DNA of 64,000 nt, taken from assembly GCA_036268855.1 (NCBI GenBank), contig DATATJ010000197.1, forward strand, positions 2,315 through 66,314, given 5' to 3'. The notes beneath the pieces were generated by a model, which did not search any database, was not told where the DNA came from, and saw only the letters and a list, made by a program, of their open reading frames with translations. This DNA comes from Vicinamibacterales bacterium. Lineage in GTDB: Bacteria; Acidobacteriota; Vicinamibacteria; Vicinamibacterales; CAVVIG01. Shown one piece after another: positions 9,881-53,099 of this stretch (position 1 is its first letter; every line of letters begins with the position of its first letter). The position numbers and the translations under genes are program-made.

Positions 9881-9928
9881 GATCCCCGATCCCCGATCCC
9901 TGATCCCTGATCCCTGATCCCGATTCCC
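9881..9928. repeat. heptanucleotide tandem array (gatcccc x2, gatccct x3, gatccc, gattccc), 48 bp
   Basis: Read directly from the sequence. With flanking bases the reverse strand is GGGAATC GGGATC AGGGATC x3 GGGGATC x2 GGG: eight G-runs of at least 3 with 3-4-nt loops. Six GATC sites. Lies between the SDR stop (9934) and the S58 start (9868). Confidence 0.95.
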
Positions 9929-9933
9929 GCCGT

Positions 9934-10719
9934 CTACATGCCCGGCGGCGTAAACCGCCCGTCGGTCGCCGTCCAGCCGCCGTCGGCGAACAGGATGGTA
10001 CCCGTGACGTAGCTCGCGGCGTCGGACGCGAGAAACAGCGTCGGCCCGACCATCTCCTCGGCTGTCGCCCACCGCTTGAAGACGCTCTTCTCCGCGTACG
10101 CGTTGTACCAGGCGCTGTTCGCCTTGATCGGCGCCGTCAGCGGCGTCTCGACGACGCCCGGCCCGACCGCGTTGACACGCACGCCATGCGGTCCGAATTC
10201 GGCGGCGCCGACGCGCACGAGCTGCACGATCCCCGCTTTCGTCATCGCGTACACCGACTGGCCGGGCTCGACCACCTGCGACCGGATCGACGAAAAAATC
10301 ACGACGCTGCCGCTTTTCTGAGCGGTCATGATTCGCCCCGCCGCCTGGAGCACGTTGAAGGTGCCCTTCAGGTTCACGGCGACGACGCGATCGAACTCGT
10401 CCGCCGAGTACTGCAGAATCGGCTTGCGCACGTTGATGCTCGGCGTGCAGACGACGATGTCGAGGCGTCCGTGATCGCGGACGATGGCGTCGAAGGCGGT
10501 CGTCACGGCGGCGCCCTCCCTGATGTCGACGGCGGCGGCAGTCGCGCCCTGGCCGATCTGCTCGGCGACCGACTGCGCCGCTGCGGCGTTGGCGTCGAGG
10601 CAGACCACCGTCGCGCCCAGCCGCGCCGCGCCGATCGCCACGGCGGCGCCGATGCCGGATCCTCCGCCGACGATCGCAGCTGTCTTTCCCTTCAACGAAA
10701 AAATTCCGGCGTCGCTCAT
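9934..10719 (-). CDS. SDR family oxidoreductase
   Basis: KTAAIVGGGSGIGAAVA (TGxxxGIG) cofactor motif and YAMTKAGIVQL (YxxxK) catalytic motif. Confidence 0.9.
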   Translation of the reverse strand: MSDAGIFSLKGKTAAIVGGGSGIGAAVAIGAARLGATVVCLDANAAAAQSVAEQIGQGATAAAVDIREGAAVTTAFDAIVRDHGRLDIVVCTPSINVRKPILQYSADEFDRVVAVNLKGTFNVLQAAGRIMTAQKSGSVVIFSSIRSQVVEPGQSVYAMTKAGIVQLVRVGAAEFGPHGVRVNAVGPGVVETPLTAPIKANSAWYNAYAEKSVFKRWATAEEMVGPTLFLASDAASYVTGTILFADGGWTATDGRFTPPGM

Positions 10720-10738
10720 GAATGACCTCGCTGGATGG

Positions 10739-11830
10739 TCACCGCTTCAGATCGCGGGCGGCAGGCAATCCGGGGAGGCCGGTCGCCTGCGTGGCCGCCC
10801 GCACGATGGCCTGCGCCATCGCCTCGGCGGCCAGCGCGCCGACCACCGTGATGTCGGCGTCGCCCGGCCATCGGCCGGTCGCGAGCGAAAACACCGTGTC
10901 GCCGTCGCCGTTGGTGTGCGACGGATAAATCGCACGCGCATATCCGTCGTCGGCCATCAAGGCCATGCGGCCCGCTTCGGCTTTCGTCAGCTTGGCGTTG
11001 GTGGCGACGACGCCGATCGTCGTGTTCTCCGCCGGGCGCGGACGGGCGAGCACGCCGCTGCGCAGGATCTTGCGGGCGTCGGCGAACTCTCCCGTGGGCG
11101 TCAGGGCGCCCGCCACGACATGGCCCGAGTCGGGGTCGATGATGTCGCCGACGGCGTTGACCGCGACGATCGCGCCGACCACGAGGCCATTCGGCATGCG
11201 CAGCGCGAACGATCCGACGCCCGATTTCATCGGGCCGCGCTGGCCGGACGGCACGCCGGGACGCTCGGCGAATCCGCCAAGCTTGCCGACGGTCGCGCCA
11301 GCGCCGGCACCCACGCTGCCTTCCTCGACAGGTCGGGTCGTCGCCGCGTCCGCCGCTTTGTAGCCACAATCGGCGGTCGGGCGGATCTTCGGGTTGCCGC
11401 CGACCGGCAAGTCGAACAGGATCGCGGCCGGAACGATGGGGACGTGTGCGATGCGCACGTCGAAGCCGATGTTGTGCTCGTCGAGCCAGCGCACCGTGCC
11501 GCTTGCGGCGTCGAGGCCGAATGCGCTGCCGCCCGCGAGCACGATGGCGTTCACCTTGTCCACCATGTTGAGCGGGTTGAGCAGATCGGTTTCGCGCGTG
11601 CCCGGCGCGCCGCCTCGCTGCGAGACGCCGCCGACGGCGTCGCCGTCAACGAGAATCGCGGTGCAGCCCGTTGGCCGTTCGCTGAGCGTGAACTGCCCGA
11701 CCTTGATGCCCTCGACCGCCGTCAGCGTCTGGTTCGCAGACACCGGAGCGGGCTGATCCACGGAGCGCGCCGCCGGCGCGACCGCTAGCAGGGACGCGCC
11801 AGCGATGCCGACGATGATCGATCGGTTCAT
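10739..11830 (-). CDS. P1 family peptidase (MEROPS S58, DmpA/BapA-like), secreted; paralog of 8819..9868
   Basis: Internal ATG (CAT 11828-11830) gives MNRSIIVGIAGASLLAVAPAA, a signal peptide. Same motifs as the paralog: GIKVGQFT, GSVGAGAGATVGK, NTTIGVVATNAKLTKAEA, DGDTVFSLATG. Confidence 0.85.
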   Translation of the reverse strand: MNRSIIVGIAGASLLAVAPAARSVDQPAPVSANQTLTAVEGIKVGQFTLSERPTGCTAILVDGDAVGGVSQRGGAPGTRETDLLNPLNMVDKVNAIVLAGGSAFGLDAASGTVRWLDEHNIGFDVRIAHVPIVPAAILFDLPVGGNPKIRPTADCGYKAADAATTRPVEEGSVGAGAGATVGKLGGFAERPGVPSGQRGPMKSGVGSFALRMPNGLVVGAIVAVNAVGDIIDPDSGHVVAGALTPTGEFADARKILRSGVLARPRPAENTTIGVVATNAKLTKAEAGRMALMADDGYARAIYPSHTNGDGDTVFSLATGRWPGDADITVVGALAAEAMAQAIVRAATQATGLPGLPAARDLKR

Positions 11831-11888
11831 GGTGTCCTCGATGGCGACGGGTGCACTGCGTAGCCATCCTATAAGAACGCGAGGAAGT

Positions 11889-11917
11889 TTGACTACCTGC
11901 GTCGTTTCTAGTAGAAA
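11889..11917 (+). promoter_or_regulatory. candidate sigma70-type promoter for the TonB-dependent receptor gene
   Basis: ttgact (11889-11894), 17-nt spacer, tagaaa (11912-11917). GGAGG at 11935-11939 lies 6 nt before ATG 11946. By-eye match only. Confidence 0.3.
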
Positions 11918-11945
11918 CCGGACGCCAACACACCGGAGGCCTGCT

Positions 11946-15050: not shown

Positions 15051-15057
15051 CGGACGC

Positions 15058-18038: not shown

Positions 18039-18050
18039 GACGGAAACCTC

Positions 18051-21709: not shown

Positions 21710-22663
21710 ATGATGTCACGCCACGTGTTCGTCCTTGCCCTCGCCGCTGTCTTTGCCGCTGCCTGCGGCAGCCCGCGCCAGGAGGCGCCGCCAAAGGAGG
21801 CGGGCGTCGATTCCGCGGCCGTCAAGGAAACCGAGCAGTTCCGCACCAAGCACGAGATCGACTATCGGAAGGAGTACGTCTCGCTCGCCGGCCTGTTCTT
21901 CCTAAACCCCGGCGCGAACAAGACGGGAAGCGCGGCCGGCGATACCGTCCTCCTCCCATCGCGCGCGCCCGCGTCGGTCGGCACCTTCGTGCTGAAGGGC
22001 ACGGACGTCCGCTTCGAGCCGGCAGCCGGCGCCACCATCACGCTGAAAGGGGAGCCGGTCACCGCTGCGATCGACGTGAAGAGCGACGAGCACCTGAACA
22101 GCGAAGGCAAGAAGGACGGCCCCGACGAAATCACGGTGGACGGCATCGCGCTGTGGGTGCATCCGAGCGGCGAGCGCCTCGCGATTCGCATGCGCGACGA
22201 GCAAGGCGAGGTCGCGCGCGCCTTCGAGGGCTTTCACTGGTTTCCCATCCAGGCGAACTACCGCGTCGTCGGTAAGTTCATCAAGGATCCGGTGGCCAGC
22301 GAGTTCCACACCGTCAACCAGCTGAACGACGACGTCGTGTACAAGACCGAAGGGGTCGTCGAGTTCACGCTGAACGGCGAGACCGTGCGGCTGCGGCCGG
22401 CGACGACGCGGCCGGGCCGCCTCTATTTCATCTTTCGCGACGGCACGAGCGGCAAGGAGACCTACGACACGGCGCGCTTTCTCTACTCGGACCTGCGGGA
22501 CGACGGCACGACCGTGCTGGATTTCAATCAGGCGTACAACCCGCCTTGCTCGTTCAATCCGTTCACGACGTGTCCGCTGCCCATCCCGGAGAACCGTCTG
22601 AAGGTTCGCATTCTCGCCGGCGAGCAGGCGTACCCGCACCCGCCGAATCACACGAAGTCGTAG
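21710..22663 (+). CDS. DUF1684 domain-containing lipoprotein
   Basis: MMSRHVFVLALAAVFAAACG is a lipobox. C-terminal LYFIFRDGTSGKETY..ARFLY..NQAYNPPCSFNPFTTCPLP is the DUF1684 signature. Confidence 0.85.
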   Translation: MMSRHVFVLALAAVFAAACGSPRQEAPPKEAGVDSAAVKETEQFRTKHEIDYRKEYVSLAGLFFLNPGANKTGSAAGDTVLLPSRAPASVGTFVLKGTDVRFEPAAGATITLKGEPVTAAIDVKSDEHLNSEGKKDGPDEITVDGIALWVHPSGERLAIRMRDEQGEVARAFEGFHWFPIQANYRVVGKFIKDPVASEFHTVNQLNDDVVYKTEGVVEFTLNGETVRLRPATTRPGRLYFIFRDGTSGKETYDTARFLYSDLRDDGTTVLDFNQAYNPPCSFNPFTTCPLPIPENRLKVRILAGEQAYPHPPNHTKS

Positions 22664-23130
22664 TGACGTTGTTTCTCGTCCATCACGGGGACGCCGTGAT
22701 GCCGGACGTCGACACGCGGCGTCCGCTCTCGCTGCGCGGACGCGAGGAGGTGACGCAGGTGGCGGCGCGGGCCGCCGCCATCGGCGCGAGGCCCGACGTC
22801 GTCTGGCACAGCGGCAAGCTGCGGGCGCGCCAGACCGCGGAGGAATTCTGGCGTGCGTGCAACGCCCTCGCCGAGCTGTCGGCGACGCGCGATCTGCAGC
22901 CCGCCGACCCGCCGGTCTGGATCCGCGACCGCCTGCGCGGCGAATCGCGCAACGTGATGATCGTCGGCCACTATCCGCATCTGCCCGATCTCCTCGCGCT
23001 GCTGACAGCCGCGCCGCCCGACGCCCATCCGCCGTTTCCCCAGCACGGCGTCGTCGCGCTGGAGTCGCTGGACGAGGGCGAGACGTGGAAGGAGATTTGG
23101 CGGGTGGAGCGGAGGGGAAGTGGGAAGTGA
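22663..23130 (+). CDS. SixA-like phosphohistidine phosphatase (histidine phosphatase superfamily)
   Basis: GTG at 22663 overlaps the DUF1684 stop by 1 nt. VTLFLVHHGDAV..RPLS..G..E..HSGKLRARQTAEE..VMIVGHYPHLPDL is collinear with SixA, but the RHG signature reads HHG. Confidence 0.7.
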   Translation: MTLFLVHHGDAVMPDVDTRRPLSLRGREEVTQVAARAAAIGARPDVVWHSGKLRARQTAEEFWRACNALAELSATRDLQPADPPVWIRDRLRGESRNVMIVGHYPHLPDLLALLTAAPPDAHPPFPQHGVVALESLDEGETWKEIWRVERRGSGK

Positions 23131-23158
23131 GAAGTTGGAAGGCAGAAGTTAGAAGTGA
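23117..23158. repeat. heptanucleotide purine-rich array (gaagtgg gaagtga gaagttg gaaggca gaagtta gaagtga)
   Basis: Read directly. The array begins in the last codons of the sixA-like CDS (stop 23128-23130) and extends into the convergent spacer. Confidence 0.9.
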
Positions 23159-23181
23159 AGGACGAAGTTCCTTCTGCCTTC
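23138..23181. terminator. candidate bidirectional terminator hairpin between convergent genes
   Basis: gaaggcagaag (23138-23148) is the exact reverse complement of cttctgccttc (23171-23181). That gives an 11-bp stem and a 22-nt loop. There is no clear U-tract. Confidence 0.4.
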
Positions 23182-23198
23182 TGCCTTGTAACTTGCGA

Positions 23199-23780
23199 TT
23201 ATCTAAAGACCAGCCCTATCGAGGCGCGCCAGAGGTGCAGCTGGCCGTTGTCTACGCCGAAATTGTTGACGCCGGTGTTCAAGTCCTTGAAGCCGCGCAG
23301 GTATCGGATGTCTCCCCGCAGGCCGAAGTGTTCCGCGAAGTACCCCATGACGCCGGCGCCGAGATTCCAGCCGAACATGTTGTTCGACGAGGACACCTGT
23401 GCGATCGTGCCGCCGTCAATCTGCGTGCGGAGCAGGCCGACGCCGCCTGTGACGAACGGACGCACGCCCGGTCCGTGCGTGCCGCCGATCGGGACGCCGA
23501 CGATCACGTTGCCCATCACGTCGATCACCGTGTTGTGACCGAAGTCGTTCTGCGTGCCGAAGAAGCTGGGGCTGTACCCGAAGTCCACTTCGCCGCCGAT
23601 GATGCCCGCGCCCATGCCGCCGGCGTCGACGCCGAACATGCCGCGGCTGTTGCTGGCGTTGGTCCCGAATGCGATGCCGGCCCACGGGCTCACGTAGCCC
23701 TCCGCCCGCGCTTGCGACGGCGCGGCGACGCCCGCCACGACCGCCGTCAGAATCAGCGCCTTGAGAACTCGTCTGGTCAC
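23199..23780 (-). CDS. outer-membrane beta-barrel protein (OMP_b-brl / OmpW-like small porin)
   Basis: GTG at 23780 with AAGGAGAG 7-8 nt upstream gives VTRRVLKALILTAVVAGVAAPSQARA, a signal peptide. Alternating aromatic/Gly beta-strand pattern ending ..WRASIGLVFR. Confidence 0.75.
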   Translation of the reverse strand: MTRRVLKALILTAVVAGVAAPSQARAEGYVSPWAGIAFGTNASNSRGMFGVDAGGMGAGIIGGEVDFGYSPSFFGTQNDFGHNTVIDVMGNVIVGVPIGGTHGPGVRPFVTGGVGLLRTQIDGGTIAQVSSSNNMFGWNLGAGVMGYFAEHFGLRGDIRYLRGFKDLNTGVNNFGVDNGQLHLWRASIGLVFR

Positions 23781-30790: not shown

Positions 30791-31906
30791 TTACGTGATT
30801 CGCCCGCGGGCCGCGACCGGCAGCGTGTCGATGACGCGATCGCCCTCGACCAGGCGCACGGCATCCATCAGATTCGAGACGACGCAGGAATGGTTCGGCA
30901 GGACGCGCACGCGATCGCCCGGCTCGAGGCGGGTTGTGCCGGCCACTCGAACGGTCGCGTGCTCTTCGGACAGTCGATCGATGGTCAGCGTGTCGTCCAC
31001 GCCGCCGTCCGCGGTCAGCACGGCGCCGTACCCCTCGGCCTTGGTGATGCCGCGCGCCTGATCGTTGGTGAGCGTCTTGCTCCCGCAGTCGAGAATGATC
31101 CGATCCGGCGCAGGCTTGGAGACGACGGTGGCCAGAATGGTGAGCGCGCAATCGTCGAGCGCCGCGCTGCCGAGCGACACCTGCGTGCGGTCGAAATAGA
31201 CGTAGTTACCGGGCCGCATCTCGGAAATCCCGCGCTGGCGGACGCTGAAGCGCAGCGTGGGCGTCGCGCCGACCGAAATCTCTTCGAGCGAAAGACCCGC
31301 CGCCGCGGCGCGGTCGCGCAGCGCCGTCAGCGTGGCGGCCTCCTGCGTGGCGATGGCATTCAGCGCGTCCTCCGACGAGGCGTGGTACGCGTGGCCGGCG
31401 TGGCTCAGCAGCCCGCGCAGGCGGAGCCCAGGCATGGCGGCGATGGCGGTCAGGAACGCGAGCGGATCGCCGCGATCGGGGTCGATCCCACACCGGTGAA
31501 ATCCGACATCCACCTTCACCAGCACGTCGAGCGTGCGGCCGGCGCGCTCCATGGCCTCCGACCATCCGTGCGCGACCGCCAGATGATCCACGATGATCGA
31601 GATCGCGGCGCGGTCCATCAGCGCCAACATGCGCGAAGCGTTGGCCGGGTTCACCGGGTAGGGCAGCCGGATGTCGCGGATGCCCGCCTCGGCGAACACT
31701 TCGGCTTCACCGACCTTCGCACAGCAGATGCCGATGGCGCCCCGCTCGATCTGCCAGGCCGCGACGGTCGGCGACTTGTGTGTTTTCGCATGAGGCCGCA
31801 GCCGAATCCCTGCGGCCGACGCGAGCGCCTGCACGCGGTCGATGTTGCGCCGCGCTCGCGCGTGATCGATCAGAACTTGAGGCGTGGGGAGATCAGAGAG
31901 AAGCAT
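30791..31906 (-). CDS. D-TA family PLP-dependent enzyme (D-threonine aldolase / DSD1 D-serine dehydratase-like, alanine-racemase fold)
   Basis: LPTPQVLID......NI.R......[15 protein letters not shown] (PLP lysine in AKTHK), [17 protein letters not shown] and a C-terminal beta domain. Start at ATG (CAT 31904-31906). The longer track ORF reads into the word repeat. Confidence 0.85.
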
Positions 31907-31998
31907 CGGAATGGTGAGCTCTCTAGTTGGCCAATTAGTAAGTTGGTGAGTTGGTAATTGCAGCTGACGCACTTGAATCTTAATTTACCAACCGTCAT

Positions 31999-32046
31999 TT
32001 ACCAACTTACCAACTTACCAACTTACCAATCTACCAACTCACCAAT
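31999..32046. repeat. octanucleotide tandem array (ttaccaac x3, ttaccaat, ctaccaac, tcaccaat), 48 bp, in a low-G+C spacer
   Basis: Read directly. There is one more ttaccaac at 31985-31992. Reverse-complement words gttggtga/gttggtaa lie at 31942-31957. ttggtgagttggta (31943-31956) is a perfect 14-bp inverted repeat of taccaactcaccaa (32032-32045). Confidence 0.95.
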
Positions 32047-32061
32047 TCAGCGAGCGGGCTG

Positions 32062-33306
32062 TCAGGCGAGCAACCCGGGGAATTTGCTCGTCTGCACGGG
32101 ATGCCCCGGGAAAATCGGATCGGCGTTCGCGACGCCCATGTGCCGCACGACAATCTCCGCGAACACGTCGCGGAAGTCGGTGGTGACCGCGAGATCGCGG
32201 CCGTCGTAACGTCGATCGACGGCCAGTCCGGGCCATTTGCCGTAGACGTGGCCGCCGTGGACGCCGCCGCCGATCACCAGCATCGCGTTGCCATGCCCAT
32301 GATCGGTGCCGCGGTTGCCGTTCTCGTTCACCGCCCGTCCGAACTCGGACATCGTCAACACCACCGTGTCTTCCATGCGATCGCCGAGGTCGGTGACGAG
32401 CGCCGCGATCGCGCGGCTGAAGTCGTCGAGCCGGGTGCCGAGCTGGCCCTGTCCGGCGCCCTGATTGACGTGCGTATCCCAGCCGCCGATGTCCGCGAAC
32501 GCGACTTCCAGGCCGACGGATGATTTCGCAAGCTGCGCGATCTGCTTCAGCGCCTGTCCGAAGGGCGAACGCGGGTACTCGGCGCCGTGCTCCGGCTGAT
32601 ATTTTGCGGGGTCGGCGACCTTCAGCATCTTGATCGCGTCGAAGGCTTCGCGCCCCGTGCCGTTCAGCACGCGATCCGCTGCCGCCGCGTACTCGGCCTC
32701 GAATGACGCGCCGAGCATATCGCCCGCGGCGCCGCGGATGCCGAACTGGCCGAGCTGGTTCATCGCCAGGGCCGCGGCGGGCCCCTGCAGCGCCCGCGGC
32801 AGCTGCGGTGCCAACGCCACGGCACGGAACGGCGTCGCCTCCTCCGCGTGCCGTGTTTGCAGGTAGCGGTTCAACCAGCCGTCGTCCGTGCGCTTCACGC
32901 CGGGCGTCGCCGTTTCCATGTAGTCCTGCGCGTCGAAATGCGATCGCGTGCTGTCCGGCGAGCCGCACGCGTGCACAATCGCCAGCTGTCGTGCGTCCCA
33001 GAGGGGCTTCAATGCCTGGAGGCGCGGATTCAGGCCGAAGAATCCGTCGAGATCGATGGCTGCATTCTCGGCGCCGCCCGGCCGCGCGATCGCGATGCTC
33101 GGCCGAGCCCGGTAATACTCGGCTTCGCCGAAGGGGACGATGACGCTGAGGCCGTCGACGGCGCCGCGCTGAAAGATCGCGATCAGCAGCTTCGGCCGGC
33201 CCGACGCGCCGGCGGCGAAGGCGGTGCGCGTCAGGAACGACGGCGCGAACCCCAGGCTGACGAACGCGAACGCTCCCTGCTTCAAGAAGACACGTCGCGA
33301 CTGCAT
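32062..33306 (-). CDS. DUF1501 domain-containing protein (sulfatase-like fold), Tat-exported
   Basis: MQSRRVFLKQGAFAFVSLGF is a twin-arginine signal. ..GGWDTH.NQ.. and ..SEFGR....N...GTDHG are DUF1501 hallmarks. Confidence 0.9.
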   Translation of the reverse strand: MQSRRVFLKQGAFAFVSLGFAPSFLTRTAFAAGASGRPKLLIAIFQRGAVDGLSVIVPFGEAEYYRARPSIAIARPGGAENAAIDLDGFFGLNPRLQALKPLWDARQLAIVHACGSPDSTRSHFDAQDYMETATPGVKRTDDGWLNRYLQTRHAEEATPFRAVALAPQLPRALQGPAAALAMNQLGQFGIRGAAGDMLGASFEAEYAAAADRVLNGTGREAFDAIKMLKVADPAKYQPEHGAEYPRSPFGQALKQIAQLAKSSVGLEVAFADIGGWDTHVNQGAGQGQLGTRLDDFSRAIAALVTDLGDRMEDTVVLTMSEFGRAVNENGNRGTDHGHGNAMLVIGGGVHGGHVYGKWPGLAVDRRYDGRDLAVTTDFRDVFAEIVVRHMGVANADPIFPGHPVQTSKFPGLLA

Positions 33307-36014: not shown

Positions 36015-36048
36015 AGTGATGCGGGCCACCGAGGCACGGAGATGATCT

Positions 36049-36281
36049 GCCACAGAGCCACTGAGTCACCGAGAAGGCTCTTCTCGATGTTACCGATGGA
36101 ACGTTTGCCACAGAGCCACGGAGTCACCGAGAAGGCTCTTCTCGATGTTACCGATGGAACGTTTGCCACAGAGCCACGGAGTCACCGAGAAGGCTGTTCT
36201 CGATGTTACCGATGGAACGTTTGCCACAGAGCCACGGAGTCACCGAGAAGCCTCTTCTCGATGTCACCGGCGGGAAGGTTT
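36049..36281. repeat. 58-bp minisatellite, 4 head-to-tail copies
   Basis: The unit is gccacagagccacggagtcaccgagaaggctcttctcgatgttaccgatggaacgttt. Copies start at 36049, 36107, 36165 and 36223. Copies 1 and 3 each differ from copy 2 by one base. Copy 4 is 59 bp and diverged in its 3' half. A degenerate fifth copy lies near 36421. Each unit carries the stem cgagaag/cttctcg with a GCT loop. Confidence 0.95.
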
Positions 36282-36282
36282 G

Positions 36283-36362
36283 CCACAGAGCCACAGAGCC
36301 ACAGAGCCACAGAGCCACGGAGACACCGAGACACCGAGATACCGAGATACCGAGACACCGAG
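36283..36362. repeat. octanucleotide word array, 10 units (ccacagag x4, ccacggag, acaccgag x2, ataccgag x2, acaccgag)
   Basis: Read directly. It abuts the minisatellite, whose first 25 nt are built from the same words. Confidence 0.95.
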
Positions 36363-36501
36363 CGCGCCAACCTCGATCCCCGCGAAGGCATCGAGACACC
36401 GAGGACAATTACCCGGATCAGCCACAGAGTCACCGAGACAGTTCTTCTTTATGTGTCGGTGATAACAAAGACGAGCCCTTGAGATGAGTTTCGCTCAGTG
36501 T

Positions 36502-36542
36502 CTCCGTGGCTCTGTGGCTGTCGATCTCCGAGCCTCTGTGGC
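36502..36542. repeat. inverted copies of the minisatellite words next to the stop of the downstream gene
   Basis: ctccgtggctctgtggc (36502-36518) is the exact reverse complement of the first 17 nt of the 58-mer. ctctgtggc (36534-36542) is the reverse complement of gccacagag. Confidence 0.9.
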
Positions 36543-36553
36543 TCCGCGGCGAA

Positions 36554-45319: not shown

Positions 45320-46903
45320 TCAGCGCTTGAACGCTTTTGCGATCACACGGGCGGCGAGCGCGCCCGAGCGTCCGTTCAACCCTGTGCCGGGATGCGTGCC
45401 CGATCCGCACAGGTACAACTGCCGGATCGGTGTCGCGTAGCGCGCCCATCCGAGCAGGGGCCTCGTCACGAACCACTGATCGAGCGACAGCTCGCCGTGG
45501 AAGATGTGGCCGCCTGTCAGGCCGTAGGTCCGCTCGAGATCGAGCGGCGTAATCACCTGCCGTGCGAGCACGGACGCGTCGAATCCGGGCGCGTAGCTGG
45601 TGATGGTCCGCGTTGCCAGGTCGCCCAGACGGTCGCGTTCGGCGTCCCATGTCGTGCCGCGCAACTTGTACGGGGCGTATTGGAGGTACGCCGAGACGAC
45701 GTGCTGTCCCGAAGGTGCGAGCGAGGGGTCGGCGATGGACGGGATCGTCAGCTCCAGCCAGGGATCTTCGGCCAGACCACCGTACTTCGCTGCGTCGAAC
45801 GCGCGCTCGATCGCGTCGATGCTGGCGCTGAGGCGAATGCGTCCGGAGAGCGCTGCCACCGCGCCGGCGTCCGGCCCCGCCGGGCGTGCAAATCGCGGCA
45901 ACGCTGACACGGCGTAGTTAATCTTGGCGAGAGTACCGTGCGCGCGAATGTTCTGGACACTGCGCACGAACTCCGGCGCCAGGTGCATCGGGTCGACCAG
46001 GCCGAGCAGCGTGTGCCTGGGATCGACGCCCGACACCACCGCGCGCGCTCCGATCTCTTCTCCACTCGACAGGACGACGCCGCTGGCTGTCCCGGATGTG
46101 ACCACGACATGTGCGATTTCGGCGCATGTGCGGATCTCGGCGCCCGCTCCGCGTGCCGCCGCCGCCAGCGCGTCGGCGACCGCGCCAGGTCCACCTCGAG
46201 CGAACCAGCCGCTGGCGATCGGATGCCCCTCGCCGGCGCCGAGGAGGAGCAGCAGCGCGGCGCTGCCGGCCGACCACGGCCCGAGAAACGATCCGAGCGT
46301 GCCGCCGGCGGCCACGGTCGCGCGGAGCGGCTCGCTCTCGAACCACTCGCTGGCCAGATCGGCCGCGGCCATCGGCAACCATCGCAGCAGGCGGTAGGCG
46401 TCAGCCCGGCCGAGCGCGCGAAATTTCCGCCCGGTCCTCAGCGTCGCGATCAGATCGGCAGCCGTCGGATCGTCGATCGACGGCGCCGGTGCATTGTTGA
46501 GAGCGCGTAGAACACCGCTGATGCGCGAGAAGCTCAGCAGGAACTTCTGGTACTGCGCCGCGTCCCTGGCAGAAAACGCCGCAATGCTCTGAGCGGCGCG
46601 CTCGGCGTCGGACCAGAGGACGAGCGTGGGGCCGTCGCGCGTCGGTGCACAGGCCGCGGAGTCGGGACGGATGATCTGCAGCCCGTGGGCCTCGAGGTTC
46701 AACGCGCGCACAATCGCCGGATCGATGGCAACGCTGTGCGCCAGCGTGGGACAGCGGAAACCTGGCGCCACCTCAGAGGTGCCGGCACAGCCACCCACGC
46801 GTTCCGCGCGTTCGAGCACCAGCGGCTTCAATCCCGCCTTGCCCAGGAACGCGGCGGTGACGAGCGCGTTGTGCCCGCCGCCGATGATCACGACATCACG
46901 CAT
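45320..46903 (-). CDS. NAD(P)/FAD-dependent oxidoreductase, phytoene-desaturase (CrtI/COG1233) family
   Basis: DVVIIGGGHNALVTAAFLGKAGLKPLVLE....GG and C-terminal LYLCGSGTHPGTGLNG. Confidence 0.85.
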   Translation of the reverse strand: MRDVVIIGGGHNALVTAAFLGKAGLKPLVLERAERVGGCAGTSEVAPGFRCPTLAHSVAIDPAIVRALNLEAHGLQIIRPDSAACAPTRDGPTLVLWSDAERAAQSIAAFSARDAAQYQKFLLSFSRISGVLRALNNAPAPSIDDPTAADLIATLRTGRKFRALGRADAYRLLRWLPMAAADLASEWFESEPLRATVAAGGTLGSFLGPWSAGSAALLLLLGAGEGHPIASGWFARGGPGAVADALAAAARGAGAEIRTCAEIAHVVVTSGTASGVVLSSGEEIGARAVVSGVDPRHTLLGLVDPMHLAPEFVRSVQNIRAHGTLAKINYAVSALPRFARPAGPDAGAVAALSGRIRLSASIDAIERAFDAAKYGGLAEDPWLELTIPSIADPSLAPSGQHVVSAYLQYAPYKLRGTTWDAERDRLGDLATRTITSYAPGFDASVLARQVITPLDLERTYGLTGGHIFHGELSLDQWFVTRPLLGWARYATPIRQLYLCGSGTHPGTGLNGRSGALAARVIAKAFKR

Positions 46904-46927
46904 ACCAGTTAGTCGACGGCCGTCTTC

Positions 46928-47010
46928 ATCACGAAATCACGAAGAACGCGGAGACTGTGTTTTGTGCAGAACGTCCTTCGTGAACTTCGTGATCTCCGTG
47001 CCTTCGTGAT
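46928..47010. repeat. inverted word repeats (atcacgaa x2 forward; cttcgtga(t) x3 reverse)
   Basis: atcacgaag (46936-46944) is the reverse complement of cttcgtgat at 46985-46993 and at 47002-47010. Lies in the spacer between the two CrtI-family paralogs. Confidence 0.85.
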
Positions 47011-47051
47011 GGCAGGTGGCGACATAGTGACGAAAGCGTCTGGCATGAGCG

Positions 47052-48629
47052 CTATCGCGTCTGCCCGAGAATCCTCAGCGCGGCGTTGCGTCCGGGAGCG
47101 CCCATGATGCCGCCGCCCGGGTGCGTCGCGGAGCCGCACATCCAGAGGCCGCGGACCGGCGTGGCGTACTGCGCCCATCCGGGTGCCGGCCGCAGGAAGA
47201 AGAGCTGCTCGAGCGTCAGCTCGCCCTGAAAGATGTTGCCTTCCGTCAGCCCGAAGGTGCGCTCGATGTCGAGCGGCGTCAGCACCTGCCTGTGCAGGAT
47301 GATGTCGCGGATATTCGGCGCGTGCTCGGCGATCGTGTCGACGACGGCGTCGCCGAATGCGTCGCGCTGTTCGTCCCACGTGCCCGACTTCAGCTTGTAC
47401 GGTGCGTACTGCACGAAGCAGGAGAGGATGTGCTTCCCGGGCGGCGCGACGGACGGATCGGTGAGCGTCGGAATCACCATGTCGATATACGGCCGGCGTG
47501 AAAACTCGCCGTACTTCGCCTGGTCGTACGCGCGCTCCATGTAATCCACGCTCGGCGAGATCGAAATCGCGCCGCGCAGGTGCGCGCCCGGCCCCGGCAG
47601 GCTCGTGAAATCCGGAAGCGCGTCGAGCGCGAAGTTCACCTTGCCGGACGAGCCGCGGTACTTGTATCGTCGGATCTCCTCGACGAACTCCGCCGGCAGC
47701 TCTTGGTCGGCGTCCATGAACTTCAGGAACGTCAGGTTCGGGTCGACGCTCGACAGCACCAGATCGGCGTCCAGTTCGTCGCCGTTGGCCAGCACGACAC
47801 CGGTTGCCCGTCCGCCCTGCAGTCGAATGCGCGCCACGGGCGCTTCGGTCCGGATCTCCACGCCGAGCTCCCGGGCGGCGCTCGCGATCGCATTCGAGAT
47901 GGCACCGGTGCCGCCACGTGCAAATCCCCACGATCGAAACGCCCCGTCGATCTCGCCCATGTAGTGGTGCAGCAGCACGTAGGCGGTGCCCGGCGACCGG
48001 ACGCCGAGGAACGTCCCGATGATGCCCGACGCCGCCATCGTCGCCTTGAGCACGTCGGTCTCGAACCACTGGTCGAGGAAATCGACGGCGCTCATCGTCA
48101 TCAGCTGGACCTGGTTGTAGCGATCCGCCTCGGCGAGCCCGCGGAACCGCTTGCCCAGGAAGACCAGCTTCATCAGCTCGCGCGGATCCAGCGTCATCGG
48201 ATCGGGCGGCGTCATGTCGAGGATCGGTTTGACGAAGCGCGCCATTTCGACCATCGCCTTGCCGTATTCCTCGTACGCCTCGGCATCGAGCTTCGAATGG
48301 CGGGCGATCTCGCGACGCGTCATCGCGTGATCGTTCACGCGCCACAGATGATCGCCGTTCGGCATCGGCGTGAAGGTGCCGTCGAGCGGCAGGATCTCCA
48401 GGCCGTGCCTCGGCAGGTCCAGATCGCGGATGATCTCGGGCCTCAGCAGCGACACGACATACGATGCGACGGAGAAGCGAAAGCCGGGGAACACTTCTTC
48501 CGTCACGGCCGCGCCGCCGAGGACATGACGCCGCTCGAGGACGAGCACTTTCCGTCCGGCGCGGGCCAGGTACGCGGCGGCCGTCAACCCGTTGTGGCCG
48601 CCTCCGATGACGATAGCGTGGGGCTTCAT
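47052..48629 (-). CDS. NAD(P)/FAD-dependent oxidoreductase, phytoene-desaturase (CrtI/COG1233) family; paralog of 45320..46903
   Basis: HAIVIGGGHNGLTAAAYLARAGRKVLVLE....GG and C-terminal LWMCGSATHPGGGIMG. Confidence 0.85.
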   Translation of the reverse strand: MKPHAIVIGGGHNGLTAAAYLARAGRKVLVLERRHVLGGAAVTEEVFPGFRFSVASYVVSLLRPEIIRDLDLPRHGLEILPLDGTFTPMPNGDHLWRVNDHAMTRREIARHSKLDAEAYEEYGKAMVEMARFVKPILDMTPPDPMTLDPRELMKLVFLGKRFRGLAEADRYNQVQLMTMSAVDFLDQWFETDVLKATMAASGIIGTFLGVRSPGTAYVLLHHYMGEIDGAFRSWGFARGGTGAISNAIASAARELGVEIRTEAPVARIRLQGGRATGVVLANGDELDADLVLSSVDPNLTFLKFMDADQELPAEFVEEIRRYKYRGSSGKVNFALDALPDFTSLPGPGAHLRGAISISPSVDYMERAYDQAKYGEFSRRPYIDMVIPTLTDPSVAPPGKHILSCFVQYAPYKLKSGTWDEQRDAFGDAVVDTIAEHAPNIRDIILHRQVLTPLDIERTFGLTEGNIFQGELTLEQLFFLRPAPGWAQYATPVRGLWMCGSATHPGGGIMGAPGRNAALRILGQTR

Positions 48630-48635
48630 GCTTCA

Positions 48636-48687
48636 GGGTGCCGGGGTGCCGGGGTGCCAGGTGCCAGGGTGCTAGGTGCTGGGTGCT
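48636..48687. repeat. 7-8-nt G-rich word array (gggtgcc ggggtgcc ggggtgcc aggtgcc agggtgct aggtgct gggtgct)
   Basis: Read directly. It starts 7 nt outside the start codon of the oxidoreductase gene (48629), in a divergent spacer. Confidence 0.95.
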
Positions 48688-48802
48688 CCGCGCGATCGCG
48701 GCGCGCGACTACAGGCCGCAGCTGCGTGTGGCGTTGCCGAGGAGGAGCGCGAGGCGGAGCAGGCGAAGCGTGCTCGGGCGGGCCATGGCGAGCGGATATT
48801 AC

Positions 48803-48808
48803 TATAAT
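48803..48808 (+). promoter_or_regulatory. TATAAT box 6 nt upstream of ATG 48815 (possible leaderless start)
   Basis: tactataatcgcgccATG. No convincing -35 element and no SD sequence. Confidence 0.25.
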
Positions 48809-48814
48809 CGCGCC

Positions 48815-50014
48815 ATGCCGATCGGGACCGCGGTCCACGAGCGCACGTTCGCACTGGCCGAGAGCCTCAATTTCCGCGAATGGTCCGGCTACTATGCGGT
48901 CAGCGCGTACGAAGCGCATCACGAGCACGAGTACAACGCGATTCGGAATGCGGCCGCGCTCATCGACGTGTCGCCGCTCTTCAAGTACCTGATCAGCGGA
49001 CCCGACGCGGCGAAGCTCGTCGATCGTGTCATCACGCGCGACGCGTCGAAGCTCGCCGTCGGACAGGTGTACTACACGCCCTGGTGCGACGGACACGGGA
49101 AGGTGATCGACGACGGCACCGTGACCCGCGTCGAAGACGACACGTTCCGGTGGACCGCTGCAGATCCGAGCCTGCGCTGGTTCACGCAGAACGCGATCGG
49201 CATGAACGTGCGGATCGACGACATCTCCGAGCAGGTCGCCGCGCTCGCGCTCCAGGGACCGACGTCCGGCCGTCTGCTCGACGCGGTGGCCGACGCTGAC
49301 ATCCGGACGCTGAAGTATTTCCGGATGACCACAGGCGCGATCGCCGGCGTTCCGGTCGAGATCTCGCGCACCGGCTACACCGGCGATCTCGGGTACGAGA
49401 TCTGGATGCCGTGGAGTCGCGCCCTGGAAGTGTGGGATGCCCTGATGGCCGGCGGCCGCCCGTTCGACATTCATCCCGCGGGCATGCTCGCGCTCGATGT
49501 CGCGCGAGTCGAAGCGGGGCTGCTGCTCATCGACGTCGATTTCCACAGCAGCAAGAAAGCGCTCGTCCCGGCGCAGAAATACTCGCCGTTCGAGATGGGC
49601 CTCGATCGCCTCGTTGCGCTCGACAAGGCGGCGCCGTTCGTCGGCCGTCAGGCGCTGATCGACGAGAAGCGCCGCGGACCCGCGCGGCGGATCGTGGGGC
49701 TCGACATCAACTGGCCCGCGGTCGAGCAGCGGTACAACAAGGCCGGTTTCCCGCCGCAGGTGGCCGCGGCCGCCTCGCGCGTCGCGGTACCGGTCTACAA
49801 GAACAGACGGCAGGTCGGCCGCGCGACGACGACAACCTGGTCGCCCGTGCTCAAGAAGCTGATCGCCCTGACGACGATGGACGCCCCGCATGCCGCGGAG
49901 GGGACGACGGTCGAGTTCGAGATTACCGTCGAGGCTGTGCGTCATCGCGTTCCGGCGACGGTCGTCAAGACGCCCTTTTTCAGCCCCGCTCGTAAAACGG
50001 CGCCCGCGATGTAA
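48815..50014 (+). CDS. aminomethyltransferase (GcvT) family protein
   Basis: EHEYNAIRNAAALIDVSPLFKY.I.G.DA..L......D, TGYTGDLGYEIW and a folate-binding C-terminus. Start placed at MPIGTAVHE. ATG 48785 is an alternative. Confidence 0.8.
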   Translation: MPIGTAVHERTFALAESLNFREWSGYYAVSAYEAHHEHEYNAIRNAAALIDVSPLFKYLISGPDAAKLVDRVITRDASKLAVGQVYYTPWCDGHGKVIDDGTVTRVEDDTFRWTAADPSLRWFTQNAIGMNVRIDDISEQVAALALQGPTSGRLLDAVADADIRTLKYFRMTTGAIAGVPVEISRTGYTGDLGYEIWMPWSRALEVWDALMAGGRPFDIHPAGMLALDVARVEAGLLLIDVDFHSSKKALVPAQKYSPFEMGLDRLVALDKAAPFVGRQALIDEKRRGPARRIVGLDINWPAVEQRYNKAGFPPQVAAAASRVAVPVYKNRRQVGRATTTTWSPVLKKLIALTTMDAPHAAEGTTVEFEITVEAVRHRVPATVVKTPFFSPARKTAPAM

Positions 50015-50019
50015 CCAGC

Positions 50020-50622
50020 GTGGGTCGGCCTGCAAAGAACCGTGAGAAGTGGCCACCGCCGGCGGACCGCGCGCCCGAGGCCGAAGCGGCGTTGTGCCGG
50101 CTGATGGCCGATTACCTCGATGGGCGGCTCGACGCCTTCGACGGCGTCTATGCCGCGCTCGCCGGACGCATCCGTGGATACCTCTACACGCTCTGTCGGG
50201 ATGCGTCGCTCGCCGACGACCTGGTGCAGGACACGTTCATGCAGATTCATCGGTCGCGACGCACGTACGAACCGGGCCGCCCGGTGACGCCGTGGGTCTT
50301 CGCGATCGCGCGCCATGTCTTCCTCATGCAACGCCGTACGGCAGGACGGCGCCAGCGCTTCGCGGATGCGCTGGCCGCGGACGCGCTGCACACGGATCGG
50401 CCGCGCGACGAAGCCGCCGCCGTGATCGATCGCGACGAAGTGCGGCGCACGCTCCGGCAGGTGCCGCCCGAGCAGCGGCAGGCCGTGCTCATGCACCACG
50501 TGGAAGGGCGCAGCTTCGCGGAGATCGCCGCGCGCCTCGGCATCCGGGTCAACGCCGCGAAGACGCGGGCGTTCCGTGGCATGAAGAAAATGCGGGAAAC
50601 GATGAAGGGATCGCCGGACTGA
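50020..50622 (+). CDS. ECF-type RNA polymerase sigma factor
   Basis: Region 2 is DDLVQDTFMQIHRSRRTY.......PWVFAIARH. Region 4 is QRQAVLMHHVEGRSFAEIAARLGIRVNAAKTRAFRGMKKMR. GTG start 5 nt after the GcvT-like stop. Confidence 0.85.
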   Translation: MGRPAKNREKWPPPADRAPEAEAALCRLMADYLDGRLDAFDGVYAALAGRIRGYLYTLCRDASLADDLVQDTFMQIHRSRRTYEPGRPVTPWVFAIARHVFLMQRRTAGRRQRFADALAADALHTDRPRDEAAAVIDRDEVRRTLRQVPPEQRQAVLMHHVEGRSFAEIAARLGIRVNAAKTRAFRGMKKMRETMKGSPD

Positions 50623-50636
50623 CGGCCGGCGCCACG

Positions 50637-51287
50637 ATGCCTGCTCCCAAACCCCTCCGCGACGCGATCGAACGCGACCTGAAGTCCACGCGTCCGCTGC
50701 GGCGTCCGTCCACCCGTGCGCTCGCGCTCGCGCCGGTGGCGGCCGCCATTCTGGTCGGCGTGCCGCTGCTGCACGCCTTCCGCGGCGACATGGACGTGCT
50801 CGGCTTCGTCCGGGCCTGGGGATTTTCCATCGCGCAGACTGTTCTTGGCCTGGTCGTCATCGCGCTGGCGCTGCGCGAGTCGATTCCAGGCCGCTCGCTC
50901 GCCGCCGGAACGGTCGCGACGACTGTGGTCAGCGGCCTGGCGCTCCCGATGGTGCTGGTGGTGATGACCTCGTCGCGATTCGACATCGGTCCGGGCCCCG
51001 GCCTGGCGCTCGTAGACGGCGCGGCATGCTTCAAGACGTCGGCGCTGGCCGCGGTGCCCGCGATCATCGTCGCCGCGATTCTCGCGGCGCGCGCGTTTCC
51101 GCTGCGACCGGGAATCGCCGGCGGGTTGTACGGGCTTGGCGCCGGCCTGATGGCCGATGCTGGCCTGCGGCTCTATTGCGATTATTCAGTGCCGAGCCAC
51201 GTGCTGTTCGCTCATGGCGGCGCCGTGGCGGCGTCGATGGTCGCCGGGGCGTGCGTGGCGATCGTCGTGGCGCGAGGGCAGGGCTGA
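50637..51287 (+). CDS. NrsF-like anti-sigma factor (DUF1109), six predicted TM helices
   Basis: Internal ATG of ORF 50049..51287. MPAPKPLRDAIERDL....P followed by six hydrophobic segments. Cys residues lie in GAACFK and RLYCDY. Positioned directly after the ECF sigma gene. Confidence 0.7.
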   Translation: MPAPKPLRDAIERDLKSTRPLRRPSTRALALAPVAAAILVGVPLLHAFRGDMDVLGFVRAWGFSIAQTVLGLVVIALALRESIPGRSLAAGTVATTVVSGLALPMVLVVMTSSRFDIGPGPGLALVDGAACFKTSALAAVPAIIVAAILAARAFPLRPGIAGGLYGLGAGLMADAGLRLYCDYSVPSHVLFAHGGAVAASMVAGACVAIVVARGQG

Positions 51288-51344
51288 GAAGGGATGGAGT
51301 GCTGGCCTGGCCCTGTCGGACCCGGCCAGCGAACGCGAAGCGGC

Positions 51345-52988
51345 CTATTTCTCGGCCATGAACGGATAACGGTAATCGTGCGGCGGGTTAAAGTTTTCCT
51401 TCAAGGTCCGCGCGCTGACCCAGCGCACGAGGTTCAGCTTCGATCCGGCTTTGTCGTTCGTGCCCGAACCGCGCGCGCCGCCGAACGGCTGCTGCCCGAC
51501 GACTGCGCCGGTCGGCTTGTCGTTGACGTAGAAATTCCCCGCCGCGTGGCGCAGCGCCGACGTCGCGTGGACGATCGCGCGACGGTCCTGCGCGAACACG
51601 GCGCCCGTGAGCGCGTACGGCGACGTCGAATCCACCACCCTCAGCGTCTCCTCCCACTTCGCATCGTCGTACACGTAGGCGGTGACGACCGGTCCGAAGA
51701 TTTCCTCGCACAGGAGGCGGTACGCCGGATCAGTCGTTTCGACGAGCGTCGGGCTCACGAAGTAGCCTTTGGCGCCCTCCACCTTGCCGCCGGCGACGAT
51801 CTTCGCTTTCCCGCGCGCGTGTTCCACGTACTCGCTGATTTTGTCGAACGCGCGCTTGTCGATGACGGCGCCCATGAAGTTCCGGAAGTCCTGGACGTCG
51901 CCCATCTTGATGTCGTCGATCATCGCGACGACGCGGTCGCGCACGCCGGCCCACAGCGACTTGGGCACGTAGATGCGGCTCGCCGCCGAGCACTTCTGAC
52001 CCTGGAACTCGAACGCACCGCGAACGATCGCTACCGCCAGCGCTTCGGCGTCCGCCGACGGATGCGCGACGATGAAGTCCTTGCCGCCGGTTTCGCCGAC
52101 GATGCGCGGATACGATCGGTAGGTGCTCATCGACGCGCCGATCGTCTTCCACATGTCATTGAAGACCTCGGTGCTGCCGGTGAAGTGGACGCCGGCGAGA
52201 TCGCGATGCGACAGCAGCGCTTTCGAGATCATCGCGGCGTCGCCCGACACCATGTTGATGACGCCTGGCGGCATGCCGGCCGCCTCGTACAGCTTCATCA
52301 GGTAATAGGCGGCGAACATCGCGCTCGACGCCGGCTTCCAGACCACCGTGTTGCCCATCAGGGCTGGCGCGGTCGGCAGATTGCCGGCAATCGACGTGAA
52401 GTTGAACGGCGTCACCGCGTAGACGAAGCCCTCGAGACCGCGATACTCGAGCGCGTTCCACATCGTGTGATCGCTCGAGGGCTGTTCGTCGAGCAGCTCC
52501 TGGCCGTAGTGGACGTTGAAGCGCCAGAAGTCGATGATCTCGCAGGCCGCATCGATCTCAGCCTGGAAGATCGTCTTCGACTGGCCGAGCATCGTGGCCG
52601 CGTTGATGGTGTCGCGCCAGGTCGTCGTCAGCAGCTCGGCGGCCTTGAGAATCACCGCGGCGCGATCGTCGAACGACCAGCTGGCCCACTCGTGCCGCGC
52701 GTCGGCGGCCGCGGCGATCGCCGCCTGGATGTCGGATTCCGACGCCTTGTGGTAGTCGGCGAGCACGTGCGCGTGGTCGTGGGGCATGACGGAGGGAGCC
52801 GTCTTGCCCGTGCGCACTTCCTTGCCGCCGATGAAGAGCGGGATCTCGATTTTTTCGCCGGCCATGGCCGACAGCCTGGCCTTGACGGAGGCGCGTTCCG
52901 GCGAACCCGGCGCGTAGGATTTGATGGGCTCGTTGACGGGCGGCGGCACGCGGCGCCGGCCATTGAAGACAGCATGTGATGAAGACAT
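51345..52988 (-). CDS. pruA: L-glutamate gamma-semialdehyde (1-pyrroline-5-carboxylate) dehydrogenase
   Basis: NEPI.SYAPGSPER, AEIDAACE.IDFWRFN, FNFT.I.GNL, VWKP, FTGST, ETGGKDF and FEFQGQKCSA.SR. Confidence 0.9.
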   Translation of the reverse strand: MSSSHAVFNGRRRVPPPVNEPIKSYAPGSPERASVKARLSAMAGEKIEIPLFIGGKEVRTGKTAPSVMPHDHAHVLADYHKASESDIQAAIAAAADARHEWASWSFDDRAAVILKAAELLTTTWRDTINAATMLGQSKTIFQAEIDAACEIIDFWRFNVHYGQELLDEQPSSDHTMWNALEYRGLEGFVYAVTPFNFTSIAGNLPTAPALMGNTVVWKPASSAMFAAYYLMKLYEAAGMPPGVINMVSGDAAMISKALLSHRDLAGVHFTGSTEVFNDMWKTIGASMSTYRSYPRIVGETGGKDFIVAHPSADAEALAVAIVRGAFEFQGQKCSAASRIYVPKSLWAGVRDRVVAMIDDIKMGDVQDFRNFMGAVIDKRAFDKISEYVEHARGKAKIVAGGKVEGAKGYFVSPTLVETTDPAYRLLCEEIFGPVVTAYVYDDAKWEETLRVVDSTSPYALTGAVFAQDRRAIVHATSALRHAAGNFYVNDKPTGAVVGQQPFGGARGSGTNDKAGSKLNLVRWVSARTLKENFNPPHDYRYPFMAEK

Positions 52989-53051
52989 AGCCTTCCAGTT
53001 TACCGCAAGGCCGCACTGGGCGGCAGACACACGGAAAAGCGAGCGTTTGGG

Positions 53052-53099
53052 GATGTGAGAATTTGAGGATGTGAGGATTTGAGAATTTGAGAATTTGCG
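53052..53099. repeat. octanucleotide tandem array (gatgtgag aatttgag gatgtgag gatttgag aatttgag aatttgcg), 48 bp, low G+C
   Basis: Read directly. Lies in the divergent spacer between pruA (start 52988) and the CN-hydrolase gene (start 53125). Confidence 0.95.

Follow-up and report, generated by a model that had tools for sequence, protein, structure and literature searches.

We analysed a 64,000-nucleotide stretch of DNA from a Vicinamibacterales bacterium (the window; bases 2315-66314 of contig C197, G+C 66.7%), in particular seven non-coding arrays in which words of 7 or 8 nt are repeated head to tail. The assembly to which it belongs (G000, from a soil acidobacterium) comprises 3.72 Mb in 319 contigs and is 71% complete. 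Judged by one 1081-aa protein, its closest relatives are metagenome-assembled genomes of uncultured Acidobacteriota, and a Burkholderia-type origin, at first guessed from G+C, was rejected; two long-read genomes of the same genus, G001 and G002, were used for comparison with sister species. A codon log-odds caller, with the genome itself as training set, gave 3108 genes (89.5% coding), with exact stops and estimated starts. The arrays had been listed in an earlier note, made from the sequence alone, as beginning at 9881, 23117, 31999, 36283, 46928, 48636 and 53052, and all seven were found there by Tandem Repeats Finder (TRF) and by reading the sequence. Together with inverted partners and an adjoining minisatellite, they are:

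9878-9929, no strand assigned: solo array of GATCCCN, period 7, 7.6 copies (TRF), in the operon-internal spacer that leads from an SDR gene (9934-10719, -) to a peptidase S58 gene (8819-9850, -; both from Pfam)
23115-23158, + strand: 5' hairpin arm of six GAAGNNN units (TRF period 7/14), in a convergent spacer
23170-23192, + strand: 3' hairpin arm of CCTTCTG units that pairs with the GAAG array (TRF 23170-23187, 2.6 copies; folding)
31925-31960, + strand: left hairpin arm of GTTGGTAA/GTTGGTGA-type units, inverted partner of the TTACCAAC array (sequence reading)
31999-32046, + strand: right hairpin arm of six TTACCAAC units (TRF 31999-32045, period 8, 5.9 copies)
36048-36306, + strand: 58-bp minisatellite of 4.4 copies, made of the 8-nt words CCACAGAG, CCACGGAG and TCACCGAG (TRF)
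36284-36362, + strand: ten 8-nt words, four CCACAGAG followed by ACACCGAG/ATACCGAG, period 8, 9.9 copies (TRF)
36493-36550, + strand: inverted copies CTCTGTGG and CTCCGTGG of the 36284-36362 words (sequence reading; TRF 36493-36519)
46928-46955, + strand: arm of a CACGAAG-type segmented hairpin, ATCACGAA units (TRF 46928-46943; folding)
46976-47010, + strand: other arm of the CACGAAG-type hairpin, CTTCGTGA units (TRF 46976-47009; folding)
48636-48687, no strand assigned: solo array of seven GGTGCNN units, in a divergent spacer (TRF)
53046-53099, no strand assigned: 6.5 copies of TTTGAGGA, the reverse complement of AAATCCTC, period 8 (TRF 53046-53097)

The 23115-23158 array starts within the final codons of a His_Phos_1 gene (22663-23130, +), and the 31999 array is flanked by an Ala_racemase_N/D-ser_dehydrat gene (30791-31906, -) and a DUF1501 gene (32062-33306, -). 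The 540-bp convergent spacer that separates a GNAT gene from a CarboxypepD_reg gene harbors the 36284-36362 array, the adjoining minisatellite, which is built from the same 8-nt words, and, about 130 nt 3' of the array, the inverted copies. Two tandem FAD-oxidoreductase paralogues (47052-48629 and 45320-46903, both on the - strand; Amino_oxidase/NAD_binding_8) are separated by the CACGAAG hairpin alone. The 48636-48687 array lies 6 nt upstream of the start codon of the first of these genes, and the 53046-53099 array 27 nt upstream of a CN_hydrolase gene (53125-53967, +).

As had been suspected from reverse-complement copies in the vicinity, three of the seven arrays are arms of strong hairpins, with folding energies of -52.8 kcal/mol for 31925-32050 (z = -8.3), -41.7 kcal/mol for 46915-47025 on the - strand (z = -3.6) and -33.5 kcal/mol for 23105-23200 (z = -3.55). 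The solo arrays at 9881, 36283 and 48636 are unstructured: 9878-9929 has no significant fold (z = -0.6), and the C-rich sense strand of 48636-48687 has a fold z of +2.4. Rfam 15 contained no family that reached the gathering score anywhere in the window.

In order to place these arrays in their genomic context, the whole 3.7-Mb genome was searched with TRF (non-redundant arrays, at least 3.5 copies), and perfect tandem repeats of at least three copies were counted independently in 393 kb of intergenic DNA. The TRF census gave about 205 arrays, 119 with period 7, 63 with period 8 and 23 with period 9, compared with five for period 6, one for period 5 and none for periods 10-11. Perfect repeats showed the same selectivity (68, 32 and 3 for periods 7, 8 and 9; none for period 5, one for period 6, none for periods 10-12). 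The recurrent 7-8-nt period, first noticed in the window, is therefore far above chance by both counts. In 400-kb samples of the sister genomes, 15, 6 and 16 arrays of periods 7, 8 and 9 were detected in G001, and 23, 11 and 6 in G002. By a test of reading frames for G+C at third codon positions, 181 of the 182 period-7/8 arrays of G000 are intergenic.

The recurring array length of about 48 bp, which had suggested a length-constrained function, did not survive the census. Exactly 48 bp were found for 6 of the 182 period-7/8 arrays, and the 46-50 bp bin (19 arrays) does not stand out from its neighbors (23 at 40-45 bp, 16 at 51-55 bp). The copy numbers follow a geometric decay (ratio 0.66, chi-square p = 0.36), which contradicts a function tied to one length. 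The long-read sister genomes give the same picture as G000, their arrays having a median length of 35 bp and reaching 142 bp at most. In the short-read assembly G000, long arrays are under-counted, as contigs begin or end inside arrays (G000:C182:1-62, C200:1-41 and C98:3-31, and likewise L122, a contig of a Joint Genome Institute (JGI) soil metagenome, which ends exactly at the 46928-47010 hairpin). Three arrays touch the end of a contig, and 14 of 205 lie no more than 150 bp away from one, in a zone that makes up only 2.6% of the genome. Arrays of this kind thus fragment short-read assemblies, and they can also confuse the prediction of start codons and terminators.

Comparison of orthologous spacers, which the earlier note had recommended, shows rapid change. 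The window region is collinear in G001 and G002, and both species retain arrays, with changed copy number or with a different word. The spacer of the 9881 array contains seven GATCCCN units in G000, four AATCCCN units in G001 and eleven AATCCCN units in G002, and the array at 48636 has 7 units in G000, about 8 in G001 and about 13 in G002. At 53052, GAGGATTT units in G000 correspond to GTGAGTTG units at the same place in both sister species, and the TTACCAAC hairpin at 31999 is replaced by a CACGAAG-type hairpin in both. A few of the words of the 36283 array are found in the orthologous spacer of G001 and none in that of G002, and the 23117 hairpin was not found in the orthologous spacers of either species. 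The CACGAAG hairpin between the FAD-oxidoreductase paralogues is present at the orthologous site in G001 and G002, and also in L204, L207, L124, L125 and L205.

For a comparison at shorter distance, exact-protein look-ups (five of eight without any match) led to three contigs from the JGI metagenome, 99.4-99.9% identical to G000. Seven arrays could be compared, of which four were identical and three differed by whole units. The array at 31999 is unchanged in a 99.87%-identical contig, and those at 48636-48687 and 53046-53099 are unchanged in the near-identical contig L122. Among the three changed arrays, the one at 36284-36362 has four CCACAGAG units in G000 versus one in contig L123 (99.87% identical), a whole-unit polymorphism; a second has its unit variants in a different order, and a third has gained one unit. 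The last two belong to a TTCAGAG/CTCTGAA inverted pair that fills the spacer upstream of dnaJ (G000:C1:15897-16086); relative to the near-identical L292, one arm is reshuffled in unit order and the other differs by the additional unit. The 58-bp minisatellite is present in 4 copies in G000 versus 2 in L123, which may be a real polymorphism or a collapse in short-read assembly. Whole-unit changes at 99.4-99.9% identity imply that array units turn over much faster than the flanks accumulate substitutions, and they show turnover of the slippage type.

In order to follow arrays beyond the genus, we collected orthologues of the FAD-oxidoreductase gene at window 47052-48629 from 160 Acidobacteriota genomes and metagenome contigs (676 kb). 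TRF detected 57 arrays of period 7, five of period 8 and three of period 9 at these 160 loci, and none of periods 5, 6 or 10-12. About 22 immediately precede the start and about 16 immediately follow the stop; their words vary by species, and inverted pairs are frequent among them. Many species retain the hairpin after the stop, and its arms change together (CACGAAG/CTTCGTG or CACGAAA/TTTCGTG); two species have a CGCAGAG-type hairpin there instead. The gene itself is 78-94% identical across the phylum, and the tandem pair with a hairpin in between recurs in many species. In samples from other genera of the family and order, heptamer arrays occur at lower and variable density, and a second conserved locus, encoding a TonB-type receptor, yielded only three arrays in 380 kb, indicating that array density is strongly uneven between lineages and loci. 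Heptamer-class repeats are common in this genus and present across Acidobacteriota.

Together, the above observations point to heptamer-class long simple-sequence repeats (LSSRs) with units of 7, 8 and sometimes 9 nt, and we consider it probable that the arrays are such a hypermutable intergenic class, generated by slippage and filtered by selection. The shared generating process proposed in the earlier note fits the period of 7-8 (or 9) nt, which is independent of the word in this genome, in the sister species and in other Acidobacteriota.

The distribution relative to genes is not uniform. Between co-directional, convergent and divergent genes, 136, 32 and 16 arrays were observed, compared with 108, 25 and 51 expected from the base pairs available (p = 5e-8). 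The initial impression that arrays occur in every context is correct inasmuch as all contexts are occupied, but divergent spacers are depleted about threefold per bp and arrays cluster at stops. Arrays in co-directional spacers lie a median of 10 nt from the upstream stop and 50 nt from the downstream start; a quarter of them touch or overlap the stop, and 84 of 134 are nearer to the stop than to the start (p = 0.004). Certain spacers consist almost entirely of an array. Phase-variable promoter spacing, one of the roles first considered, is unlikely as a general function, because divergent spacers are depleted and most arrays lie just 3' of stops.

The same placement bears on the possibility that arrays are regulatory G-quadruplexes or phase-variation elements in 5' leaders, with the unit number tuning downstream expression. 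Two window arrays would suit such a role. On the sense (-) strand, 9878-9929 reads GGGGATC/AGGGATC, i.e. (GGGATCN)7, close upstream of the start of the S58 peptidase gene, and its word type GGGNATC is that of Xanthomonas and Nostoc, where it forms quadruplexes in vitro (PMC4692102); the array at 48636 sits 6 nt from a start codon, with 7, 8 or 13 units depending on the species. However, most words in the genome have no G-runs, a preference for four units is absent, arrays tend towards stops rather than starts and avoid divergent spacers, and the two window arrays close to starts are the same in the near-identical contig. We therefore regard a role of this kind as very unlikely.

The words of the window arrays are unrelated to each other, as originally described, but this does not hold for the genome as a whole. 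G000 has 82 canonical words, the majority of them at one locus each and most without GGG. The commonest are AAATCCTC with 28 arrays (that at window 53046-53099 being one of them), AAATCTG with 25, AGCCTCC with 9, and AAATTCTC and AAGGCAG with 8 each. Outside arrays, AAATCCTC is present in about 8 intergenic single copies versus 4 expected. No flanks or loops common to the 28 AAATCCTC loci were found. Three tandem AAATCCTC units match 29 times in G000, not at all in G001 and G002, and 19, 4 and 2 times in three other genera; AAATCTG arrays are patchy across genomes as well. The window words GATCCCN and TTACCAAC occur at dozens of loci in G001 and G002, the commonest word in the sister genomes is AATCCCG, and dominant words differ among species of the same genus.

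Word families at up to 28 loci with hardly any single copies, the patchy distribution of words among genera and the retention of arrays in corresponding spacers of different species might all be expected if arrays were binding sites for sequence-specific nucleic-acid-binding proteins, with one protein per word family and words following the protein repertoire. Proposals of this type have been published, namely global regulator sites in Geobacter (PMC2700814) and a translational regulator in Beggiatoaceae (PMC4679880). On the other hand, most of the 82 words in the one genome are confined to a single locus, unrelated words substitute for each other in orthologous spacers, copy number is geometric without a favored number of sites, and no candidate protein was identified. 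Solo arrays also have no strand preference relative to genes (8:8 for AAATCCTC, 9:8 for AAATCTG). Binding sites are for these reasons a rather improbable explanation.

Inverted arrangement is frequent throughout the genome. Of the 205 arrays, 68 are accompanied within 120 nt by three or more inverted units of the array's own word, versus 11 for reversed or complemented control words. The 47 inverted pairs have a median span of 113 nt, a median loop of 25 nt and a median folding energy of -52.6 kcal/mol (median z of -8 versus shuffles). Their orientation is almost invariant: in 40 of 41 pairs with G/C skew, the G-rich arm is on the 5' side and the C-rich arm on the 3' side (p = 4e-11), and in G001 and G002 taken together the ratio is 10 to 1. 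Counted by word, the handedness is 19 versus 1, and counted by superfamily (words linked at one-base difference) 12 versus 1. As an inverted repeat reads identically on both strands, this handedness is independent of the direction of transcription or replication. Apparent strand rules for the sense strand (G-rich after stops, 74:22; C-rich before starts, 35:19) are a consequence of hairpin handedness; true solo arrays follow no such rule. Ordinary 9-bp hairpins outside arrays have the G-rich arm on the 5' side in 110 versus 77 intergenic cases, a mild bias, and in 402 versus 403 coding cases, i.e. none.

One could imagine that the hairpins are mobile elements similar to miniature inverted-repeat transposable elements or to repetitive extragenic palindromic (REP) sequences and their hairpin-forming doublets (REPINs), spread by a transposase, and that solo arrays are their decayed halves. 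Copies of a founder element would share a constant handedness and place the same word at many loci without a pool of single copies; one third of the arrays are inverted pairs, and some insertions, for example at 23117, are found in G000 only. However, handedness extends to 12 of 13 unrelated word superfamilies, which rules out a founder effect, the 28 AAATCCTC loci have neither conserved flanks nor conserved loops, and the arm lengths of inverted pairs are uncorrelated (rho = 0.19). A RAYT-like (REP-associated tyrosine transposase) Y1 transposase gene in G001 has classical REP hairpins, GTAGCGCAGGTCTTTAGACCTGC, on its flanks rather than word arrays. Mobility of this type is accordingly quite improbable.

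A geometry in which the G-rich strands of both arms face each other, in 40 of 41 pairs and whatever the word, resembles the head-to-head arrangement of fused telomeres. It could arise if broken or nicked DNA were the substrate of an active end-adding or fill-in process that placed G-rich repeats 5' to 3' on both sides before joining, with period and word set by the enzyme or its template; the discrete unit sizes would fit. The end-joining setting might be provided by Ku (PF02735), which is encoded in the window (5006-5839, - strand) and by a second copy on contig C258. Yet Ku was found in 27 of 31 relatives, including G006, which has no 7-8-nt arrays in 93 kb sampled; being nearly universal, its presence discriminates nothing. 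True solo arrays have no orientation rule, and unit perfection shows no polarity towards the loop (p = 0.11); in tests relative to word, gene and loop, polarity was not significant (p = 0.15-0.28). We know of no candidate repeat-adding enzyme in bacteria and consider this explanation very improbable.

As for the effect of the hairpins, classical intrinsic termination is not supported: stems are very stable, but a U-tract is mostly missing, as 7-8 of 47 pairs have at least five T in the next 10 nt. Within 46000-54000, no terminator-like match was found at the window arrays. Avoidance of Rho as the cause of handedness is weakened by solo arrays that are C-rich on the sense strand, which are not avoided (25:18), and by convergent spacers, where handedness is the same. 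The array hairpins behave like structural palindromes of the REP type or of bacterial interspersed mosaic elements (BIMEs), and they may act on RNA or DNA structure, e.g. on mRNA stability or processing.

The earlier note was not aware of a functional description of such arrays. In fact, intergenic heptamer and octamer arrays, including inverted pairs, have been described in several lineages (PMC4679880, PMC4692102, PMC2700814). The arrays of G000 belong to the class already reported in Xanthomonas, Nostoc, Geobacter, Beggiatoaceae and Burkholderia, and are not a new kind of element. According to the summary in PMC4679880, Mrazek et al. (with Guo and Shah, 2007) surveyed repeats of 5-11-nt units, found them in scattered free-living lineages with larger genomes, heptamers being commonest, and proposed polymerase slippage, with 7 nt corresponding to the stretch of DNA held by the polymerase. 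As far as that summary goes, the likeness lies in tandem 5-11-nt units beyond chance length, with heptamers as the commonest class, and in the exclusion from coding DNA of units that are not a multiple of three (181 of 182 intergenic here). Iteration beyond chance, coding exclusion and polymorphism of unit number between close genomes were all observed in G000. A difference from the class as summarized there is that octamers here, and nonamers in a sister species, are nearly as common as heptamers.

The closest parallel in placement is found in Xanthomonas and Nostoc, with the words GGGAATC and GGGGA(C/T)T and about 180 intergenic GGGAATC arrays per Xanthomonas genome (Rehm et al., 2015; PMC4692102). 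These arrays are enriched between open reading frames (ORFs) that are aligned, with only 7-8% between divergent ORFs, and lie at most 50 bp from the stop when on the coding strand, or upstream of ORFs when on the non-coding strand; convergent orientation is seen in 70-75 pairs, and length and sequence vary between species (PMC4692102). Aligned-ORF enrichment, divergent depletion, stop proximity and pair handedness are all seen in G000 as well. Whereas Xanthomonas has one dominant quadruplex-forming word with a preference for four units, G000 has many words, mostly without G-runs, and geometric copy numbers; a G-tract quadruplex word with a four-unit preference was not found in G000, where few arrays (e.g. 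9878-9929) have the word type. Handedness in G000 holds for many unrelated words, unlike in Xanthomonas with its one dominant word. Heptanucleotide repeats of the cyanobacterium Calothrix are cited in the same paper.

In Geobacter metallireducens, several word families whose 7- or 8-nt units are repeated four or five times in tandem (GGACCGG, GTTGCTYN, MTYCTGA) are found at tens of loci per family, mostly as opposite-strand pairs (Aklujkar et al., 2009; PMC2700814). They are putative global regulator sites with a fixed unit number, some inside genes, whereas unit number is free in G000 and arrays are almost never coding. TAACTGA heptamers of marine Beggiatoaceae, cyanobacteria and Bacteroidetes are patchy across phyla, and their single-copy and repeated occurrences are uncorrelated (MacGregor, 2015; PMC4679880). 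In Beggiatoaceae, the one word is forward-oriented and stands immediately upstream of start codons, in contrast to the many words of G000, which are mostly stop-proximal and have no strand rule when solo. REP, BIME and REPIN elements are alike in being abundant intergenic imperfect palindromes, often post-stop in operons, with fast turnover and species-specific families, but REP arms are a fixed sequence of 20-40 nt, while the arms in G000 are microsatellites of variable unit number without conserved flanks. Neither a fixed family sequence common to copies nor a RAYT gene flanked by word arrays was found.

Since about 1990, repeats of the heptamer class have turned up in many bacterial phyla. 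The genus studied here carries them densely, in many words and three period classes (7, 8 and 9 nt), and long-read sister genomes are at hand. It should be useful for asking why units have 7-8 rather than 5-6 nt, by what route a single word gets to dozens of loci, and why there is one handedness. In addition, the arrays are candidate strain-typing markers, of the kind based on variable numbers of tandem repeats (VNTR), for uncultured Acidobacteriota.

How slippage and selection might produce this picture can be sketched as follows. From at least two units on, arrays gain and lose whole units, as seen between the near-identical contigs. This leads to a geometric copy number without a favored length and lets the word in a spacer drift or be replaced quickly, as seen between species. 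Replication slippage, rather than recombination or another process, presumably drives the unit changes, and the period selectivity may reflect a property of the replication or repair machinery. Loops of this size would also escape mismatch repair (MutS). Purifying selection would then set where arrays persist, tolerating them just after stops, in operon-internal and in convergent spacers, removing them from coding DNA and keeping them scarce in divergent promoter spacers.

Several observations weigh against this sketch. By slippage alone, one and the same 8-mer could not have been placed at 28 loci: AAATCCTC has only about 8 intergenic single copies outside arrays. Moreover, AAATCCTC arrays were not found in the two sister species searched but are present in three other genera, a patchiness that is not expected from a fixed word-specific propensity to slip. 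Slippage also gives no reason for the missing 5- and 6-nt arrays, nor for the 40:1 handedness of hairpins. That three species keep arrays in the same spacers, and that arrays persist next to one conserved gene phylum-wide, could mean function rather than tolerance. Finally, the evidence for copy-number variation comes from seven arrays in short-read assemblies, where the 58-bp difference could be a collapse.

Instead of being passive products of slippage, arrays might come from an active word-specific process, either a repeat-writing or repeat-copying enzyme or selection for a nucleic-acid-binding system, and the near-absolute handedness would be its signature. We judge this unlikely, although if true, it would explain heptamer repeats in many phyla at once. 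Slippage filtered by selection remains the probable origin of the arrays.

A link of the word arrays to RAYT genes and REP sequences was considered and rejected. The RAYT-like gene of G001 (L286, G001:C3:320300-323620) is accompanied by REP hairpins at about 1283-1369 and 1904-1988 of this locus, which have another sequence, and the pattern GTAGCGCAGGTCTTTAGACCTGC was not found in the window. The REP hairpins of G001 are a second repeat system, separate from the word arrays. Similar GCGCTACG...CCTGC motifs were observed upstream of the FAD-oxidoreductase gene in L124 and L205.

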